Shown here: one piece after another, positions 1,203 through 28,829 of the stretch
Layout of the letters: every line of letters begins with the position of its first letter
Position numbering within the stretch: position 1 is the stretch's first letter
Assembly: GCA_016186915.1 (NCBI GenBank)
Contig: JACPKU010000006.1
Coordinates: 249,619 to 313,618 of the forward strand
Direction of reading: 5' to 3'
DNA: 64,000 bases
Source of the DNA: Candidatus Doudnabacteria bacterium
GTDB lineage: Bacteria; Patescibacteriota; Doudnabacteria; UBA920; O2-02-FULL-48-8
Program-made: the position numbers and the translations under genes
The notes under the pieces: model-generated
Told to the model about the DNA's origin: nothing
What the model saw: only the letters and a program-made list of their open reading frames with translations
Database searches by the model: none

Positions 1203-1608
1203 TTTTTAAAATTCCAGTTACAAGTTCGCAGTCAGCAGGAACCAATTCTTGAATATTTTTATGTCAATGATTCGAATGTTCAAAGTGTCGCAAGGCATCT
1301 TGTCTGTTCATCCCGTAAACAATTTTTCTGATTTTCTCCCACATCGCGGCTCCGGTACACATCATACAGGGCTCACAGGTGGAATATAGTATGCAGCCGG
1401 GTAAATGTTTGGTTCCTAAGACTTTACACGCTTCGCTGATCGCTTTAATTTCCGCATGTCTCGTGCCGTCCTGTTCTTCCTCAGTCGTGGAGTAGGCCTT
1501 GGCGACGACCTCACCATCTTTTACCACCACGGCGCCAAACTTTTTCGGTCCCTTACTTTTCTTTGCTTCCTCAATAGCCAGCTTCATGAACTCTTCATCG
1601 CGGGTCAT
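1177..1608 (-). pseudogene. Zn-dependent nucleoside/tRNA deaminase (TadA/guanine deaminase family) with an in-frame TGA at 1264-1266
   Basis: HAE and EPCMMC motifs; the frame continues past TGA as HKNIQELVPADCELVTGILKNECIALLG*, a typical family C-terminus. Confidence 0.75.
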
Positions 1609-1620
1609 ATCACTTGTCCG

Positions 1621-2928
1621 TTAAGATTTTTTAATCGTGTCAAATCCAATATATTCTTGCAACACTTTTGGCACTTTCACCGAACCGTCTTTTTGCTGGT
1701 TGTTTTCCATAATCGCCACAAGCGTTCTGGGCATTGCAATTGCGGTTGCGTCATTGGTGTGCACATACTCAGTGGTACCATCTTTTTTACGAAAACGAAT
1801 GTTTAGGCTTCGAGCCTGGTAATTCGTAACGTAATCAGCGCTGTGCGTCTCTCGATATCTTCCTTGCGATGGAATCCAGGTTTCCAAATCCATTTGTCTG
1901 GCATCAGGTTTGGCCATATCGCCCGTGCAATTCAAAACCACCTGATAAGCAAGGTCCAGGGACTGCATAATATACTCTTGAGTCGCGACTAAAAATAAAT
2001 GCTCATTCAAACCGTCCTCAGGCTTCGTAAACGACTCCATTTCAATCTTATCAAACTGATGCACCCGAATCATCCCTTTGGTGTCTTTACCGTATGATCC
2101 TGCTTCTCTGCGAAAGGCAGTGCTGATTGCCGCGTAGCGGATAGGCAAACTTTCTTCTTTCAAGGTCTCGTCCATATGCATAGGCACCAGAGTGTGTTCG
2201 GCGCTGCCGATCAAATACTTATCATCTGAATTGATATAAAACTTGTCCTCTTTGTCAGCCTCGGTCAATCGAGTGGTCCTTTTGTATACTTCTGGCTTAA
2301 TCATCACGGGCGGAAAAACAGGGATAAATGGTTTGGGGTTGACCTTCAGTTTGGCAGCACGAGCGATCTTCTCAAGCTCGGAACTGTTGGTCAAAATTTT
2401 AAAAACGTGGTGAGTTAGGGCCAGTTCAATTTGTGCCATGCCACCCTTCCAGTATCCAAACCTGGCTCCTGCTACCTTGCTGGCTCTCTCCATATCCAAA
2501 ACATTTAGGTCAGCGCCCAGCTGCAAGTGATCTTTGATCTCAAAATCAAAATTTTTGGGCTTGCCTACTTTTTTAACAACCTCATTTTCAGTTTCGTCTT
2601 TTCCCACAGGCACATCTGGAAGAGGCACATTCGGAACCTGTCGCATGGTTTCAAGCCATTGATCTTGAATCTCTTTCAATTCCAACTCAAACTTTGCTGA
2701 GCTTTCCTTTAGCTTTTTGCCCTCTTTCACGAGCTTATCGTCCTTGCCTTTTTTCAAGGTTTGGGCAATCTCGTTCCTGCGGGACCGGATAGCTTCTGTT
2801 TCAACAATCAGCTTACGCCGCTGATCGTCTAGACTGATCAGATGATCAAGATTAACATTTAATTGTTTGTCTTGAATGGCTTTTTTTACTACTTCTTGAT
2901 TGTCGCGGATGAATTTGATATCGAGCAT
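1621..2928 (-). CDS. serS: Seryl-tRNA synthetase
   Basis: MLDIKFIR N-terminus, FRREAGSYGKDT.G..RVHQF motif 2. Confidence 0.98.
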   Translation of the reverse strand: MLDIKFIRDNQEVVKKAIQDKQLNVNLDHLISLDDQRRKLIVETEAIRSRRNEIAQTLKKGKDDKLVKEGKKLKESSAKFELELKEIQDQWLETMRQVPNVPLPDVPVGKDETENEVVKKVGKPKNFDFEIKDHLQLGADLNVLDMERASKVAGARFGYWKGGMAQIELALTHHVFKILTNSSELEKIARAAKLKVNPKPFIPVFPPVMIKPEVYKRTTRLTEADKEDKFYINSDDKYLIGSAEHTLVPMHMDETLKEESLPIRYAAISTAFRREAGSYGKDTKGMIRVHQFDKIEMESFTKPEDGLNEHLFLVATQEYIMQSLDLAYQVVLNCTGDMAKPDARQMDLETWIPSQGRYRETHSADYVTNYQARSLNIRFRKKDGTTEYVHTNDATAIAMPRTLVAIMENNQQKDGSVKVPKVLQEYIGFDTIKKS

Positions 2929-13661: not shown

Positions 13662-14228
13662 TCAAAGCTCAAATAACCTAACTAAGTCCTTTTGAATATC
13701 AATCTTTTGCACTGTCAATATTCTAATATAGGATCTCACTTCATAAAGCTCACCGATAAAATCAACTTCATCTTCACAGGAATAGGGATAAATCCAAACA
13801 CTTTTCTGCAATTTATAAAACCCTAGCTCTTTTAGTTTATTACGCAGACACTCCCTCCCCATCTTATATTTTTCGGGAATATCAAAAATTACCACACGCC
13901 ATTTACGATCCCATTTCCAGGGCTTTTTGATTCGCATGTCTTCAAGTTTGTATTTCAATACTTTATTTTGTCCGTTCTTTGTAAGTCCTACCACGGTTGT
14001 GTCACCATTTTGTGATACGCCAATCAATCTTTGCTTCTCTATTCTCCTTAAAGAATCATAGACCTTCCGTCTGCCCACTCTTGGGAGACCAAGTTCGTCG
14101 GCAATCACCATAAATGTCAATGGCCCTGCAACAGGAATTGCCAACACTCCGGCTGCGGCGAGAGTTAGCAAGACGGTTTTAGTGATCTTTAGTCTTCGTT
14201 TTGTTTTTTCAGTGTTCAATTTCTTCAT
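13662..14228 (-). CDS. PaaX-like regulator with Cas2-like domain (paralog 2)
   Basis: WDRKWRVVIFDIPE...LKELGF..LQKSVWIYPY; shares AG.LAIPVAGPL with 5775..6353. Confidence 0.85.
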   Translation of the reverse strand: MKKLNTEKTKRRLKITKTVLLTLAAAGVLAIPVAGPLTFMVIADELGLPRVGRRKVYDSLRRIEKQRLIGVSQNGDTTVVGLTKNGQNKVLKYKLEDMRIKKPWKWDRKWRVVIFDIPEKYKMGRECLRNKLKELGFYKLQKSVWIYPYSCEDEVDFIGELYEVRSYIRILTVQKIDIQKDLVRLFEL

Positions 14229-17129: not shown

Positions 17130-17981
17130 TTAAGTCGCTAATATTAATTCCGACAAAACAAGCTTCGCATTAAGATTCTGTTCAATGAATCTGCGCGCTC
17201 TGCTCACCAGTCTGAGTTTATTGGCCAACTCCGGCTTCCCGGTGAGGTTGAGATCGCGCTCAAGCCGGACCAGCCAAAAATCCAACAACGTTTTGATCTC
17301 GGTCGTTTCCTGTCCCGCAATCTCTTGAGCCAGAAGCAGTCGGTCGATTCTTTCTGCTTGATTAAATGTTTGATAAGACAAGCCCCAGCTTTCAAGTTCT
17401 GTGAAGTTTTCAGGATCCGCCAAAACTTTTTTAACCCAACCAGGACGGCCGGCCGCCACTGACGAAATTAGATCTTTTTGGTCTGCCGAAAGCGTAGCCG
17501 GCACCAAGACCTTGAGCTCATCCTCTCCTACCAGCCCAAAATTAATTTTTTGCGTGCGGCTGATAATTGTTTTAGGCAATCGCTCCACCGAACTAGTAAC
17601 AAGGATGATCACGGTATTGGGTTTTGGCTCTTCCAAAGCTTTGAGCAAAGCATTGCTGGCTTCCAAGGTCATGGTCTCAGCCCGATCTATCAGCGCAACT
17701 TTATATTCAGCCGAATAAGGCTTAAGCGATAATTTGTAAATCAACTCTCGGATCTTTTCTATCTTTATCCCTGCTTCGTCTTCTATCAGTAAAAAGTCTG
17801 GATGAAAATAATTTTCGAATGAAGGAGGATCAATCAGAACTTTCGCCAGCCATATCCCCACCAATTTTTTCCCCACCCCTTCGGGACCTGCAAAAATATA
17901 AGCGTGCGGCACCCTGTCTTTTGCAATAGCACGCGCCAACATATCTATTTGCCTTTTGTGTCCTACAATTCCTTCAAGCAT
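17130..17981 (-). CDS. holB: DNA polymerase III delta' subunit
   Basis: HAYIFAGPEGVGK, HPD, NALLKALEEP, TIISR; probable start MLEGIVGH at 17981. Confidence 0.92.
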   Translation of the reverse strand: MLEGIVGHKRQIDMLARAIAKDRVPHAYIFAGPEGVGKKLVGIWLAKVLIDPPSFENYFHPDFLLIEDEAGIKIEKIRELIYKLSLKPYSAEYKVALIDRAETMTLEASNALLKALEEPKPNTVIILVTSSVERLPKTIISRTQKINFGLVGEDELKVLVPATLSADQKDLISSVAAGRPGWVKKVLADPENFTELESWGLSYQTFNQAERIDRLLLAQEIAGQETTEIKTLLDFWLVRLERDLNLTGKPELANKLRLVSRARRFIEQNLNAKLVLSELILAT

Positions 17982-18084
17982 ATCAGTTATTATACCATTT
18001 TTCAAATAGATAACAAAACTTTTTGGCCCCAATCTAAATAGAATGCTATTATAAATCATCTAGGTCTAGCCACAAGGAGGAAAG

Positions 18085-18369
18085 ATGACTATTTGGGACA
18101 ATGCTACACCCGAACAGATTCTCGACCGAGTCAAGGCAATCGTGGCACCACATGGCTTAAACGCCGAATTTCTCGAAGGGATCCTGTCCGTTGGCGTTCA
18201 AGGGGACGATCGTACCTACACTCCCGTCGTGGTCCTGAACGGGCCGCATCCGGGCTGGGAAATCCTGGAGAGGCTTTCATCACAAATCTCCAACGAAACG
18301 CCCGTGAACCGAGTCACGTTCGAGGTTGCCACTCGGCCCACGACGCTCTCAAACCGGCGAGCGCGATAG
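18085..18369 (+). CDS. Small protein resembling the isolated C-terminal domain of GMP synthase
   Basis: SVGVQGD.RTY and LERLSSQI.NE..VNRVT.EV resemble the GuaA C-terminus; SD AAGGAGG; hairpin CCCGTCGA/TCGACGGG plus T-tract downstream. Confidence 0.75.
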   Translation: MTIWDNATPEQILDRVKAIVAPHGLNAEFLEGILSVGVQGDDRTYTPVVVLNGPHPGWEILERLSSQISNETPVNRVTFEVATRPTTLSNRRAR

Positions 18370-18472
18370 AGACTGAGTAATTGCGCAGGCAGAACTGCCC
18401 CGTCGACACTCGCTATCGACGGGATTTTTTATATTAACAAATTACTACAATACAAAATAAATTCACGCAAAC

Positions 18473-18549
18473 AAAAAAACCAGCCCTGACCTAACGTCGG
18501 GGCTGATTTTTTACGCGTTACATTTCTTGTACAAGATTTAGGCTTAACC
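18473..18549 (-). ncRNA. Putative ~78-nt small RNA (unit 3 of the ncRNA island)
   Basis: TTGACG-17-TATGAT promoter (18584-18556); terminator CAGCCCCGAC/GTCAGGGCTG plus U7; no ORF inside the transcript. Confidence 0.5.
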
Positions 18550-18617
18550 TTAACTATCATAAAATTGCTAAATCTTCACGTCAATAAATTTGTATTTCCT
18601 AAGATTTAGAAGGATTG

Positions 18618-18648
18618 TGTGCATATTCTCTGGAAAACTGCTGGATAA
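18618..18648. promoter_or_regulatory. Three degenerate DnaA-box-like 9-mers at 11-bp period
   Basis: TGTGCATAT, TCTGGAAAA, GCTGGATAA compared with consensus TGTGNATAA. Confidence 0.4.
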
Positions 18649-18695
18649 ATTGTACATTACCAAAATTTTAAGATTTGATTTCTAACTTTTGCATT

Positions 18696-18935
18696 AAAAA
18701 AATCACTAAAAAGTGATTTTTTTATAGACCGGTGTGCTGCTGATTTTGTTCTACCACTCTCTTACGAACCTAGCAGAACCCAGGGACCGGGTCCAAGAGG
18801 TTGCCCTTACTTGTTTTACACCTAAGCCGTTTCTTGCTTAAGCGAACCCTTGATCAAAACCTGCATCTCCTGATCCTCCGAACAGCCTTGCAGCTGCCCG
18901 CTCCGCCTAAGTTGCCTCAAACGGAGACCAATGGT
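18696..18935 (-). ncRNA. Putative ~240-nt multi-stem ncRNA (unit 2)
   Basis: TTGACA-17-TAAAAT promoter (18970-18942); GCAA-capped stems with G-U pairs on the minus strand; terminator 18696-18723. Confidence 0.7.
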
Positions 18936-19013
18936 GAATGTATTTTAGAAATTATTAAAATCAGTGTCAATAAATTTTAAAAACCCAGTTTTTATTAAAC
19001 TTTTGATAAATCC

Positions 19014-19045
19014 TGTGCATAACCTGTGCTTAACCTTGGGGATTA
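19014..19045. promoter_or_regulatory. DnaA-box-like array (TGTGCATAA, TGTGCTTAA, TGGGGATTA)
   Basis: One perfect TGTGNATAA match plus two degenerate boxes at 11-12 bp period. Confidence 0.5.
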
Positions 19046-19062
19046 ATTGTGAGTTTCTTACT

Positions 19063-19542
19063 AAAAAAGAGGCTCGCAAGCAAGGCTTACAAGCCGAAGA
19101 ACGAGGAGGGGAGCAGATCAACCATCCAACCGGTAGCCCTTGTTAAGGCGGCCAGATGGTCAAATCAGTCCCCTCCACCCCGCAGCGCTGACAGCGCTGT
19201 GTTTGCAGCGTGTCTCGTCCGGGCCTTGGGCCTCGGGCAGAGCCAGCCGCTGGGAACTTGTTGTTTCCTCCGAAAAATTGTAGCGGACAGGGAGTTTGGA
19301 TGGTTGAGGCCGGGCCAGCGGAATCAACCAGCCTCCCTCCCCATCCTGTCGGCGCCGAGCGTGTCAACTGGCGCCGAGCTTGTACCGAGGGGATGCGCGC
19401 GCGTAGGGCCAGTAGCAGCCCTTTAGCGTGGCCTTTGTTGCGCACTCACCCCCTCGGACCGCGCTTGTCCAGAAAGGCCCCAGCCCCTCGGACTTGCGCG
19501 ATCTTGAGAAACCCAAACCAAAAAAACTTACCTGTCTTTGGT
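19063..19542 (-). ncRNA. Putative ~480-nt GC-rich, highly structured ncRNA (unit 1)
   Basis: TTGACA-18-TATAAT promoter (19577-19548); consecutive long hairpins with minus-strand G-U pairs; terminator 19063-19095; overlapping ORFs do not look like proteins. Confidence 0.75.
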
Positions 19543-19583
19543 AAGTTATTATATATTTCAAATTACCAAACTGTCAATAGATT

Positions 19584-20600
19584 TTATTTTGTTGCCAAAA
19601 TACTTTTTTTATAGCTGTCCAAATTGTCCAACGCCACCCCTGTGCCGGCAGCCACGCATAAAATAGCGTTTTCAGCCACGTAAGCTGGAACTCCGGTAGT
19701 TTGGCCAATTAACTTGTCGATATTTCGCAAGAGCGCGGTGCCGCCTGTCAAAACCATGCCCTTATCAATTATATCCGCGGCCAGCTCAGGCGGAGTTTCT
19801 TGCAGGACGGTTCGGACTGCCTGGATGATTTCCCGCAGTTCTTCCTGAATCGCTTCCACGATTTCATTGGTGGAAATTTTAATCGTTTTGGGAAGCCCCT
19901 GTATCAAGTCCCTGCCTCGAATTTCAAGCTTGGTCTCTTTCTCCACTGGTATGGCCGAGCCGATCTTAATTTTAATATCTTCCGCAGTCCGGTCTCCCAC
20001 AGCCAAGCCGTGCTTGCGGCGGATATATTCTGCGATGGCCTGATCAATCTTGTTGCCCGCCACCCTCACAGAAGTCTGGGTCACAATCCCGCCAAGTGAA
20101 AGCACTGCCACGTCCGTGGTGCCGCCGCCAATGTCTATGATCATGTTGCCAGAAGGATTCGCGATGTCTATCCCAGCGCCGATAGCGGCGGCCACGGTTT
20201 CTTTGATTATGTAAGCGGCTTTGGCCCCGGCCGCGTGCGCCGCGTCAATCACCGCTCTTCTTTCAGTGGAAGTGATGCCGCCGGGTACGGAGATCATAAC
20301 TTCAGGGCGAAAAAATCGGACATTGCCCGTGGCCTTGTTAATAAAATACCGAAGCATAGCTTCTGTCACCCGGTAATCTGCAATCACCCCGTCCTTCATA
20401 GGTCTGTGCGCCACGATTGTGTCAGGAGTGCGGCCCAACATATCCTTGGCTTCCTGTCCCACGGCCAAAATCTTATTGTCAACTACAGAAATCGCCACCA
20501 CTGTGGGCTCATTAATAATAATGCCCTGCTTGGGCACGAATACTAAGGTGTTGGCAGTTCCTAAATCTATTCCAATTTGCCGTAAAAACAATCGAGCCAT
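19584..20600 (-). CDS. mreB: Second MreB/Mbl-family actin homolog
   Basis: GIDLGTANT, DIGGGTTD, LTGGTALL. Confidence 0.95.
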   Translation of the reverse strand: MARLFLRQIGIDLGTANTLVFVPKQGIIINEPTVVAISVVDNKILAVGQEAKDMLGRTPDTIVAHRPMKDGVIADYRVTEAMLRYFINKATGNVRFFRPEVMISVPGGITSTERRAVIDAAHAAGAKAAYIIKETVAAAIGAGIDIANPSGNMIIDIGGGTTDVAVLSLGGIVTQTSVRVAGNKIDQAIAEYIRRKHGLAVGDRTAEDIKIKIGSAIPVEKETKLEIRGRDLIQGLPKTIKISTNEIVEAIQEELREIIQAVRTVLQETPPELAADIIDKGMVLTGGTALLRNIDKLIGQTTGVPAYVAENAILCVAAGTGVALDNLDSYKKSILATK

Positions 20601-27227: not shown

Positions 27228-28829
27228 TTATTGTTTTAGAAGATGAGGAAGTAAACTAATCCCTGTCATTTCCGTGGGTTTCTCAATACCTAATAATTCT
27301 AGCATAGTCGGGGCGACATCTGAAAGCACGCCAACCGGGATCACGCTTGCCAATGAGGAAATGCCCCCTTCTTTTTGCGACTTTAACTTAAACTGATTAG
27401 CCACTAAAAACACGGGCACGGGATCGGTTGAATGTTCTTTGTTGATGCCGCCGGAGTGAATGTCCAACAGCTCTTCGATATTGCCATGATCAGCCGTAAT
27501 CACAAGGCAAATATCCTGCTCCAGACACGCGGCAACAATTTTTTTTATACACTCATCAATCACTTTCACAGCCTCGATGCAGGCTTGTAAATTCCCGGTA
27601 TGACCGACCATGTCCGCGTTGGCAAAGTTGACCAGAATAAAGCTGTAACCCCCTTTGAGTCTGGTCAGAACCACCTCGGTAACCTTGTGTGCCGACATTT
27701 CAGGTACATCCTGATAGTTTTGATAGTTGGAGCTGGGGGAGGTCACGATCTCCCGTTCTTCCCCGGGATACAGGTTGATCGCGCCGCCATTGAAAAACAC
27801 CGACACGTGCGCGTATTTTTCCGATTCCGCCACATGGAACTGGCGGAGTCCTTTTTTGCTGATTACTTCGGCAAATCCATTAACTATTTCCTGCGGCTTG
27901 AAAGCCACTTGGACATTTAGATCCTTCGCAAACTCAGTGAGGGTCACCATATATAAATTCTTAGGCTGGGAAACACTGCTGCCGAACTTATCGAATCCTT
28001 TGTCAGTCAAGGCTCTCGTGATTTGTAGCGCCCGATCCGGCCGGAAATTAAAATGAATTACAGCGTCATTGTCGGAAATTTTGGCGATCCGCCCGCCTTC
28101 CTGTTCAATCAAGGTCGGCGGAATCATCTCATCAGTAATGTCTTTTTTATAGTTCTCTTCAATCGCGTCTTTGGCGGATTTGGCGTGAGGACCGTCCGCC
28201 AAAACTAACACTTTGTAGGTTTGTTCTGTCAGATTCCAATGTTCGGCCCGATCCATCGCGTAAAATCTGCCAGTCACCGAGGCAATGCTGCCGGTGCCCA
28301 AGCTTGCCATTTTTTTATTTAATCTGTCCAGCGTATCTAAGGCAATCTTCGGCGGCGTATCGCGTCCATCTGTAAAAAAATGGATAAACACGTTTTTTAA
28401 ATTATATTCAGCGCACAAGCCCAGCAAAGCGTAAAGGTGCTCATCGTAGCTGTGCACGCCGCCCGGACTGACCAGACCCATCAAATGCAGGCTGGAATTG
28501 TATTTTTTTGTATGCTCTATCGCCTGCAAAAATTTCTCATTTTTGAAAAAACTTCGGTCCTCAATCGCCAGCGTGATACGAGACAAATCCTGACCCACGA
28601 TCCTGCCCGCCCCCAAATTCAAATGCCCGACCTCGGAGTTGCCCATCTCTCCCCACGGCAGGCCCACTGCCGGCCCAGAAGCCTGCAGGGTGGTGGACGG
28701 ATAATTGGCCACGAGGTGATTCACCGTGGTGGGTTCTGCCAATGTTATGGCGTTCCCTTGAGATGCGGTGGCAATGCCAAACCCGTCCAGCACCACCAGC
28801 ACTATTTTTTTGTAAGGCTCAAAATTCAT
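27228..28829 (-). CDS. gpmI: 2,3-BPG-independent phosphoglycerate mutase
   Basis: LDGFG, MGNSEVGH, AESEKYAHV, DMVGHTG, TADHGN. Confidence 0.97.
   Translation of the reverse strand: MNFEPYKKIVLVVLDGFGIATASQGNAITLAEPTTVNHLVANYPSTTLQASGPAVGLPWGEMGNSEVGHLNLGAGRIVGQDLSRITLAIEDRSFFKNEKFLQAIEHTKKYNSSLHLMGLVSPGGVHSYDEHLYALLGLCAEYNLKNVFIHFFTDGRDTPPKIALDTLDRLNKKMASLGTGSIASVTGRFYAMDRAEHWNLTEQTYKVLVLADGPHAKSAKDAIEENYKKDITDEMIPPTLIEQEGGRIAKISDNDAVIHFNFRPDRALQITRALTDKGFDKFGSSVSQPKNLYMVTLTEFAKDLNVQVAFKPQEIVNGFAEVISKKGLRQFHVAESEKYAHVSVFFNGGAINLYPGEEREIVTSPSSNYQNYQDVPEMSAHKVTEVVLTRLKGGYSFILVNFANADMVGHTGNLQACIEAVKVIDECIKKIVAACLEQDICLVITADHGNIEELLDIHSGGINKEHSTDPVPVFLVANQFKLKSQKEGGISSLASVIPVGVLSDVAPTMLELLGIEKPTEMTGISLLPHLLKQ

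Follow-up and report, generated by a model that had tools for sequence, protein, structure and literature searches.

What does a non-coding island of about 1.1 kb do between two protein genes of a small bacterial genome? The window analysed here is a stretch of 64,000 nucleotides (nt) from Candidatus Doudnabacteria (contig JACPKU010000006.1), and its island lies between mreB2 and holB. A first-pass annotation had described it as an undescribed non-coding RNA (ncRNA) cluster of three tandem minus-strand units, each with a promoter, a structured RNA and a terminator. The answer proposed here is that the island carries three ncRNA genes, RNA1 to RNA3, that RNA2 and RNA3 are switched by DnaA through helically phased arrays, and that RNA3 pairs through its first 11 bases. 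For this sequence-based reading as a whole, the balance of evidence is slightly favorable; that the conserved RNA genes are real is very likely. The earlier description is supported for units 2 and 3, which are conserved, covarying, found in a single family and not represented in Rfam. It has a limit in unit 1, which shows no sequence conservation. The features of the island, in the direction of transcription, are as follows.

19548..19577, minus strand: promoter 1, 12/12 match to the sigma70 consensus, spacer 18 nt
19518..19547, minus strand: hairpin plus U-run overlapping the start of unit 1 (hairpin itself 19547-19525)
19063..19541, minus strand: RNA1 (unit 1), ~479 nt, 61% GC, ~10 hairpins; terminator hairpin 19071-19095
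19014..19045, minus strand: RNA2 array of DnaA-box-like sites, three 9-mers spaced 12 and 11 base pairs (bp)
18942..18970, minus strand: promoter 2, 11/12 match to the sigma70 consensus, spacer 17 nt
18696..18935, minus strand: RNA2 (unit 2), 240 nt; terminator 18696-18723
18927..18935, minus strand: RNA2 5′ self-complementary element at the predicted +1, a 9-mer with a central U.U in the window
18794..18813, minus strand: RNA2 bulged hairpin with GNAA loop, near-invariant
18618..18659, minus strand: RNA3 array of DnaA-box-like sites, four 9-mers with 11-bp period
18556..18584, minus strand: promoter 3, 10/12 match to the sigma70 consensus, spacer 17 nt
18473..18549, minus strand: RNA3 (unit 3), 77 nt; terminator hairpin 18481-18505
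18539..18549, minus strand: RNA3 5′ 11-mer, reverse complement of the apical loop of RNA4 in relatives

Three Units between mreB2 and holB

All three promoters lie where they had been placed, the folds and terminators are present, and the lengths first given as about 480, 240 and 78 nt become ~479, 240 and 77 nt. A sequence scan gives 8 promoter-like sites, compared with 2.7 +/- 2.1 in shuffled sequences, and 4 terminators, compared with 3.1 +/- 1.7, a count that alone is not above chance. Folding z-scores against shuffles are -7.9, -5.1 and -3.9 for units 1, 2 and 3, and four coding controls range from -0.6 to +0.9. A terminator scan finds the hairpin of unit 1 (19095-19071). It misses the A/T-rich hairpin of unit 2 (18723-18696), which is present in the fold and in 13/13 aligned homologs, and reports the hairpin of unit 3 (18505-18481) on the plus strand only, although a U-run follows on the minus strand too. 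Three open reading frames (ORFs) of 100-134 amino acids (aa) overlap the GC-rich unit 1.

The hairpin at 19547-19525 is probably the terminator of the mreB2 operon. A transcript from promoter 1 would lack the 5′ arm of this hairpin and so would be unable to form it. A comparable overlap between hairpin and start of unit 1 occurs in the loci L002, L007 and L011 of relatives.

A Covarying RNA with a 5′ Palindrome

RNA2 has a pair of hairpins at its 5′ end. The rest of the fold includes a closing helix, an internal loop and two three-way junctions that carry GNRA loops. A covariance model built from 13 sequences finds it as a single copy in 12/24 relatives of the family, hence, with the window genome, in 13/25 genomes. 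Under stricter filters the model finds RNA2 in 0/121 other genomes of the order and 0/150 across the phylum, and with filters off nothing exceeds 10.5 bits in 14 loci without RNA2. Of the pattern matches in metagenomes (n=16), 3 are fragments matching by chance and 13 are complete copies, among which two diverge clearly. In the alignment of 13 sequences, 96% of cells are paired and 35/65 pairs show double-sided change, a level reached by 0/500 shuffles, which ignore the relatedness of the sequences; slid controls give 4-16 pairs.

In 15/15 RNA2 copies the self-complementary element begins at a distance of 6 nt from the -10 hexamer, downstream of it. It is a perfect 8-mer palindrome in 13/15, in three different sequences, and is thus retained through double substitutions, as in a self-dimerizing ncRNA. 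Because an 8-mer palindrome cannot close a hairpin, the pairing is taken to be intermolecular, and dimerization of RNA2 through its 5′ end is rather probable. A palindrome acting at the DNA level is the alternative.

A Short RNA with a Conserved 5′ End

RNA3 is more widespread: the combination of a -35 hexamer and the downstream 5′ motif occurs once in 22/25 family genomes, and in the other three the slot is unassembled (no mreB2 match, or a contig end within ~1 kb). Outside the family, 2/121 genomes match with other spacing, and control matches number 4 in 146 searched. In 23/24 copies, 35 nt separate the start of the -35 hexamer from the start of the motif. Conservation falls off after base 11, in a comparison where the motif doubled as the search key. 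Variable small hairpins follow and then a long terminator hairpin, in which 16/26 pairs show double-sided change (14 hand-picked short copies; 0/500 shuffles). An internal 3′ motif, defined by pattern, is found in 17/24 copies. With its own promoter, an intrinsic terminator and a conserved short seed, RNA3 has the layout of a trans-acting seed small RNA (sRNA).

Candidate targets and origins of this seed were considered in turn. The nrdR leader contains the full site in few of 20 leaders. In the dnaA leader a 7-mer occurs in 8/25 genomes and lies within a palindrome upstream of the apparent promoter. Mimicry of 23S rRNA ends, an idea drawn from Escherichia coli, fails for RNA3 and RNA4 alike, as three family 23S genes have different ends. 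The region upstream of nrdR (L200-L219) itself has a conserved promoter and leader. The leader contains hairpins, a U-run and, ~50 nt ahead of the start, a GAGAG motif; it is possibly an uncatalogued attenuator.

RNA3 is also a site of insertion. A multi-copy element of ~142 nt, with terminal inverted repeats and a predicted internal pseudoknot, occurs in 12/24 relatives but not in the window genome, and 13/16 copies read have an exact 4-bp duplication. Six genomes have it inside RNA3, and in three cases, dnaA among them, it is located at an ATGA start codon. Copies are:

L005:1253-1402, minus strand: ~142-nt element
L170:1695-1849, minus strand: ~142-nt element
L180-L198: further loci with the ~142-nt element

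Phased Boxes Upstream of the RNA Promoters

DnaA-box-like arrays had already been noted at this locus; they prove to be conserved, helically phased to the promoters, and repeated upstream of dnaA. With boxes defined as 9-mers within two mismatches of TTATNCACA, at least two lie upstream in 15/15 RNA2 and 23/23 RNA3 promoters; the corresponding shuffles give means of 4.1 (maximum 9) and 5.4 (maximum 10). The boxes share a single strand, and their positions relative to the -35 hexamer cluster near -95, -84, -73, -62 and -51. Control promoters are at chance level (4/16 for RNA4, 3/18 parsed for holB). Conserved position and conserved phase of DnaA-box-like sites are the sequence signature of a DnaA-regulated promoter. 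A strict scan of the whole genome for exact 11-bp triads, using a matrix from 53 boxes of relatives, returns four matches: one upstream of dnaA (19.6), two at the RNA3 promoter (19.5 and 15.0) and one weak site (7.8). In 19/25 genomes, two boxes exactly 11 bp apart are found upstream of dnaA.

The arrays could instead bind another regulator, MraZ-like or unknown, in which case the RNAs would not be tied to DnaA. A looser scan also catches repeats at 10-12 bp before a gene that we take to be mraZ-like, judging by the start of its protein. These related TGTGG repeats in the window genome (G000:C4:25840-25890) are spaced 10, 10 and 12 bp, unlike the 11-bp period of the RNA arrays, and include two perfect DnaA-box matches. 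The RNA arrays, for their part, match TTATNCACA and recur upstream of dnaA, so that another regulator is very unlikely. DnaA is the best candidate for the protein binding the arrays, and its control of RNA2 and RNA3 is likely.

The surroundings of the boxes have features of their own. Upstream of dnaA (L155-L179; in the window genome L178 = G000:C2 ~28165-28300) the order is conserved: a phased box triad, a palindrome TGGCTWA-n-TWAGCCA and a promoter whose spacer holds a reversed DnaA box. A palindrome akin to the one upstream of dnaA is present at G000:C5:21367. Between array and -35 hexamer, the RNA2 and RNA3 promoters carry an A-tract/T-tract inverted repeat (18975-19000 in the window, and in relatives), which may be an UP element, a bend or a further site.

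A Complementary RNA in the Relatives

Second matches of the RNA3 motif lead to a further gene, RNA4, which also consists of promoter, RNA (217-375 nt) and terminator and is often divergent from a cobalamin riboswitch. It is present in 18/24 relatives and 0/121 outside-family genomes, and has no match in Rfam.

L059:1372-1726, minus strand: RNA4 copy
L058, L061, L062, L064, L071, L075, L081, L082, L120-L122, L124, L125, L127, L129, L131, L151: RNA4 homologs

The apical loop of RNA4 (19 nt, invariant) includes the reverse complement of RNA3 bases 1-11. These 11 bases do not vary in 17 aligned copies; G002, outside the alignment, has a deletion there. The 11-bp match is perfect in 14/16 genomes with both RNAs, and if the conserved RNA is assumed to total 2 kb, the probability of finding it by chance is ~5e-4. 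Covariation of the RNA4 stem is modest (8/33 pairs, terminator included). Further features of RNA4 are a second hairpin, whose A-rich loop is conserved, and a terminator in which the UCUC loop is conserved as well. With one mismatch allowed, the loop is found in 5/394 outside genomes, which is the control level, and the RNA4 profile backs none of the 4 fetched. In the searches for homologs of these RNAs outside the family, viral contigs yield 0, 0 and 39 chance-like matches, and phages and plasmids yield none. Direct pairing of RNA3 and RNA4 is the favored interpretation, with some reserve.

The reserve stems from the possibility that the match reflects a shared third partner, either a protein reading the 11-mer in DNA or in RNA or a common target, the DnaA-linked ncRNAs being real all the same. 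RNA4 was not found in the window genome (nhmmer at E<=1, loop scan with <=5 mismatches, syntenic site read), nor in 5 further genomes that keep the RNA3 motif. Because these 6 genomes keep the motif without detected RNA4, RNA4 cannot be its sole constraint. Two supported forks of a DnaA tree place RNA4-lacking beside RNA4-bearing genomes, so that repeated loss and assembly gaps are both possible; the tree is too unresolved for ordering gains and losses. The duplex shows no compensatory change, the other half of the loop is equally invariant, which pairing leaves unexplained, and a related half-site occurs in the conserved palindrome at the dnaA promoter. However, the motif sits at the first base of RNA3 and, reversed, in an unpaired loop of RNA4 on a somewhat covarying stem, where a DNA site would need no stem, and G.U pairs permit the 5′ end of RNA3 to fold while the complement in RNA4 stays open. 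A third partner is therefore possible but unlikely, and direct pairing is retained.

A second alternative starts from 6S RNA, a single long hairpin with a central bubble that binds the sigma70 holoenzyme and templates a product RNA (pRNA). RNA4 or RNA2 could be a divergent polymerase decoy of the 6S/Ms1 kind, and the 5′ end of RNA3 could mimic the product of the RNA4 loop, freeing polymerase at replication onset. The genome has no 6S match, RNA3 starts as a transcript templated by the RNA4 loop would, and the match extends into the RNA4 stem in G016 and G011. Yet this stem-ward extension is seen in 2/15 pairs only, RNA4 has an apical loop rather than a bubble between two helices, RNA2 is multi-branched, and neither scores with RF00013. 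Such a decoy is quite improbable, and pairing of two regulatory RNAs remains the preferred account.

The Variable First Unit

Unit 1 is not part of a conserved trio because it lacks sequence conservation: among 12 slot sequences, blastn gives only matches of <=18 nt. That the island contains no credible ORF, as first stated, agrees with the comparison of proteins, in which the sole sense ORF of RNA1 (100 aa, GTG start) has no homolog among proteins of 55-175 aa; a coding role was rejected on this ground. The longest sense ATG ORF has 12 codons. Among the slots, 8 of 9 hand-picked ones could be scored (in the ninth the promoter was not parsed) and contain units of 329-615 nt with z-scores of -3.0 to -10.9 and longest ATG ORFs of 12-54 codons; in other relatives the slot is empty or holds protein genes. 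No cluster of this kind follows mreB2 in 20 genomes read from other families. In L049 (~1520-1850, minus strand) an RNA1-like folded unit lies between RNA2 and RNA3 and not before both; over its first bases it is similar to the unit in L089. RNA1 is probably a transcribed, fast-turnover occupant of a variable slot, with no assignable role.

This variability raises the question of whether the entire island is an insertion hot spot for selfish hairpin or moron-like cassettes, or for small-peptide mRNAs, without RNA function. The slot carries unrelated genes or folded inserts in relatives, and the multi-copy mobile element has entered RNA3 in 6 of them; for unit 1 such an origin is plausible. It accords poorly with RNA2 and RNA3, which are single-copy, syntenic and covarying in non-terminal helices, with the ORFs of RNA1, and with the lack of phage or plasmid matches. 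For the island as a whole it is highly improbable.

The flanking genes complete the layout.

19584..20600, minus strand: mreB2 (MreB/Mbl), upstream flank, last gene of murB-murA-mreB2
18085..18369, plus strand: convergent 94-aa gene with weak GMP_synt_C match, outside the RNA cluster
~18390-18429: own terminator of the convergent 94-aa gene
17130..18059, minus strand: holB (DNA polymerase III delta′), downstream flank

At the spot of the 94-aa gene other relatives have unrelated small genes. Farther away, the window contains a stand-alone PaaX-like gene with a Cas2-like domain (13662-14228, minus strand).

Known RNAs and the Host Genome

None of the units corresponds to a known RNA family, as had been claimed: an Rfam search of the window gives zero matches at gathering score (best E 0.34), and covariance models and ARAGORN find no tRNA or tmRNA at the locus. 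The host genome (G000; 728 kb, 97% complete) has its RNase P RNA and tmRNA elsewhere, so that the units are neither of these nor tRNA. An identity as signal recognition particle (SRP) RNA was rejected in the absence of any RF00169 match in the genome, where the SRP54 family gives just a 20-bit sub-cutoff match. For 6S RNA there is no RF00013 match in the genome, and RNA1 is multi-hairpin and RNA3 short, in addition to the shapes of RNA2 and RNA4 already described. A CsrB/Rsm-type protein sponge was discarded because CsrA (PF02599) was not found in the genome, a search whose control was detected in 3/14 genomes. Hfq was not found in it either, with the LSM model being no valid Hfq test since its control missed E. 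coli; nor was a reverse transcriptase. Finally, the island is not oriC: the GC skew of the window is monotonic, and dnaA is located on another contig, C2, where it coincides with a skew minimum.

Relation to Described Systems

EcpR1 of Sinorhizobium (PMC4414408) and CcnA of Caulobacter (PMC8959179) are, like the RNAs of the island, stand-alone sRNA genes tied to replication or the cell cycle. EcpR1 is Hfq-independent and pairs via a conserved single-stranded motif; it is stress-induced and represses dnaA and gcrA mRNAs through a loop (PMC4414408). The island differs in its DnaA-like arrays upstream, in a seed that is the 5′ end, and in that the sole conserved complement found is another ncRNA; its RNAs have no sequence match to EcpR1 or CcnA. 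In the sponge pairs QrrX/Qrr, SprY/RNAIII and FtsO/RybB (PMC12101431) the active segment of one RNA is bound by base pairing to the other, as is predicted here for RNA3 and RNA4. RNA4, in contrast, is an RNA gene of 217-375 nt with several conserved loops in a setting where Hfq was not found, and an mRNA target was found for neither partner.

RNA2 resembles ARRPOF, OLE, ROOL, GOLLD and HYER1, multi-helix RNAs whose role is unknown or partly known, and ARRPOF, which has a link to replication, is close to it in size; pairing of palindromes has been described as an interface of RNA dimers (PMC12990946). RNA2 differs from these self-assembling RNAs in being chromosomal and restricted to a single family, in its 5′-terminal palindrome and in having no Rfam match. 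An identity with ARRPOF was rejected: RF02933 has no match in the window, and in one relative (L049) it reaches 24.5 bits, compared with a cut-off of 127, in a flank-driven hit that skips the RNA2 core. The format of stand-alone RNA genes of 200-300 nt, in a host without detectable 6S, is shared with 6S and Ms1, but there is no rod with a central bubble. No conserved complementarity links RNA2 to RNA4.

The arrays recall the low-affinity DnaA-ATP sites of E. coli oriC, weak 9-mers that deviate from TT(A/T)TNCACA and lie 2 bp apart (PMC6070618). They differ in keeping a fixed phase to the sigma70 promoters of RNA genes that are distant from the origin, and in the window copies no perfect high-affinity box lies next to them.

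No description of these RNAs was found in the literature, in a search with subscription papers mostly outside its coverage, and none of the listed titles naming Doudnabacteria concerns RNA genes. In the main text of PMC5737381 and of 10.64898/2026.07.01.735769 the Candidate Phyla Radiation (CPR) names searched are absent; a motif given only in a supplement could escape. The RNAs are uncatalogued and are a variant of stand-alone bacterial ncRNAs.

A Possible DnaA-driven RNA Circuit

In the mechanism proposed, DnaA would oligomerize, as at the dnaA promoter, on weak boxes that are spaced 11 bp apart and precede the -35 hexamer by 51-95 bp, and the levels of RNA2 and RNA3 would consequently follow replication initiation. 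RNA3 would act as a seed RNA without Hfq, its weak 5′ hairpin unfolding to pair with an exposed loop (loop-linear pairing), with RNA4 as its partner or sponge where present. RNA2 would fold compactly, dimerize via its 5′ palindrome and either scaffold a protein or act as its decoy.

Besides the genomes without RNA4 and the disregard of relatedness in the covariation shuffles, several observations weigh against this reading. RNA2 is missing in 12/25 family genomes, 7 of which are >=90% complete. Its array in the window, spaced 12 and 11 bp, is missed by the strict scan and picked up in the looser one only. The window RNA3 has no copy of the usual 3′ internal-loop motif and is, by its sequence, a reduced member of the family. 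Where base 10 of RNA3 is C, in two copies, the A directly upstream is absent as well, a pattern consistent with an intramolecular hairpin, and G018 (in RNA3) and G002 (in RNA4) each have one uncompensated mismatch near an end of the duplex. No conserved mRNA target was found for RNA3, a start-region scan of the window genome giving weak matches only, and the scarcity of full sites in nrdR leaders points the same way.

A more far-reaching version is a cell-cycle switch made of RNA only, in Doudnabacteria without detectable Hfq, CsrA, SRP or 6S. DnaA-ATP filaments on phased weak boxes would fire the RNA2 and RNA3 genes at replication onset, and the 5′ end of RNA3 would capture the loop of a constitutive RNA4 that holds a growth factor, for instance RNA polymerase; meanwhile RNA2 would assemble as a palindrome-linked dimer. 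Such a switch would be an initiator-driven RNA-RNA circuit that gates the exit from dormancy in an ultra-small bacterium. This version is speculative and rather doubtful.

Patescibacteria are usually regarded as having very little regulation. In this one lineage the evidence points to three conserved RNA families that are not catalogued; phased DnaA-like arrays precede two of them, and two are mutually complementary. Each proposed step is open to in vitro work without culturing the organism, and RNA2 is a compact, covariation-supported target for cryogenic electron microscopy with a predicted dimer site. If the proposal is true, it would reveal an Hfq-free RNA regulatory layer coupled to replication.
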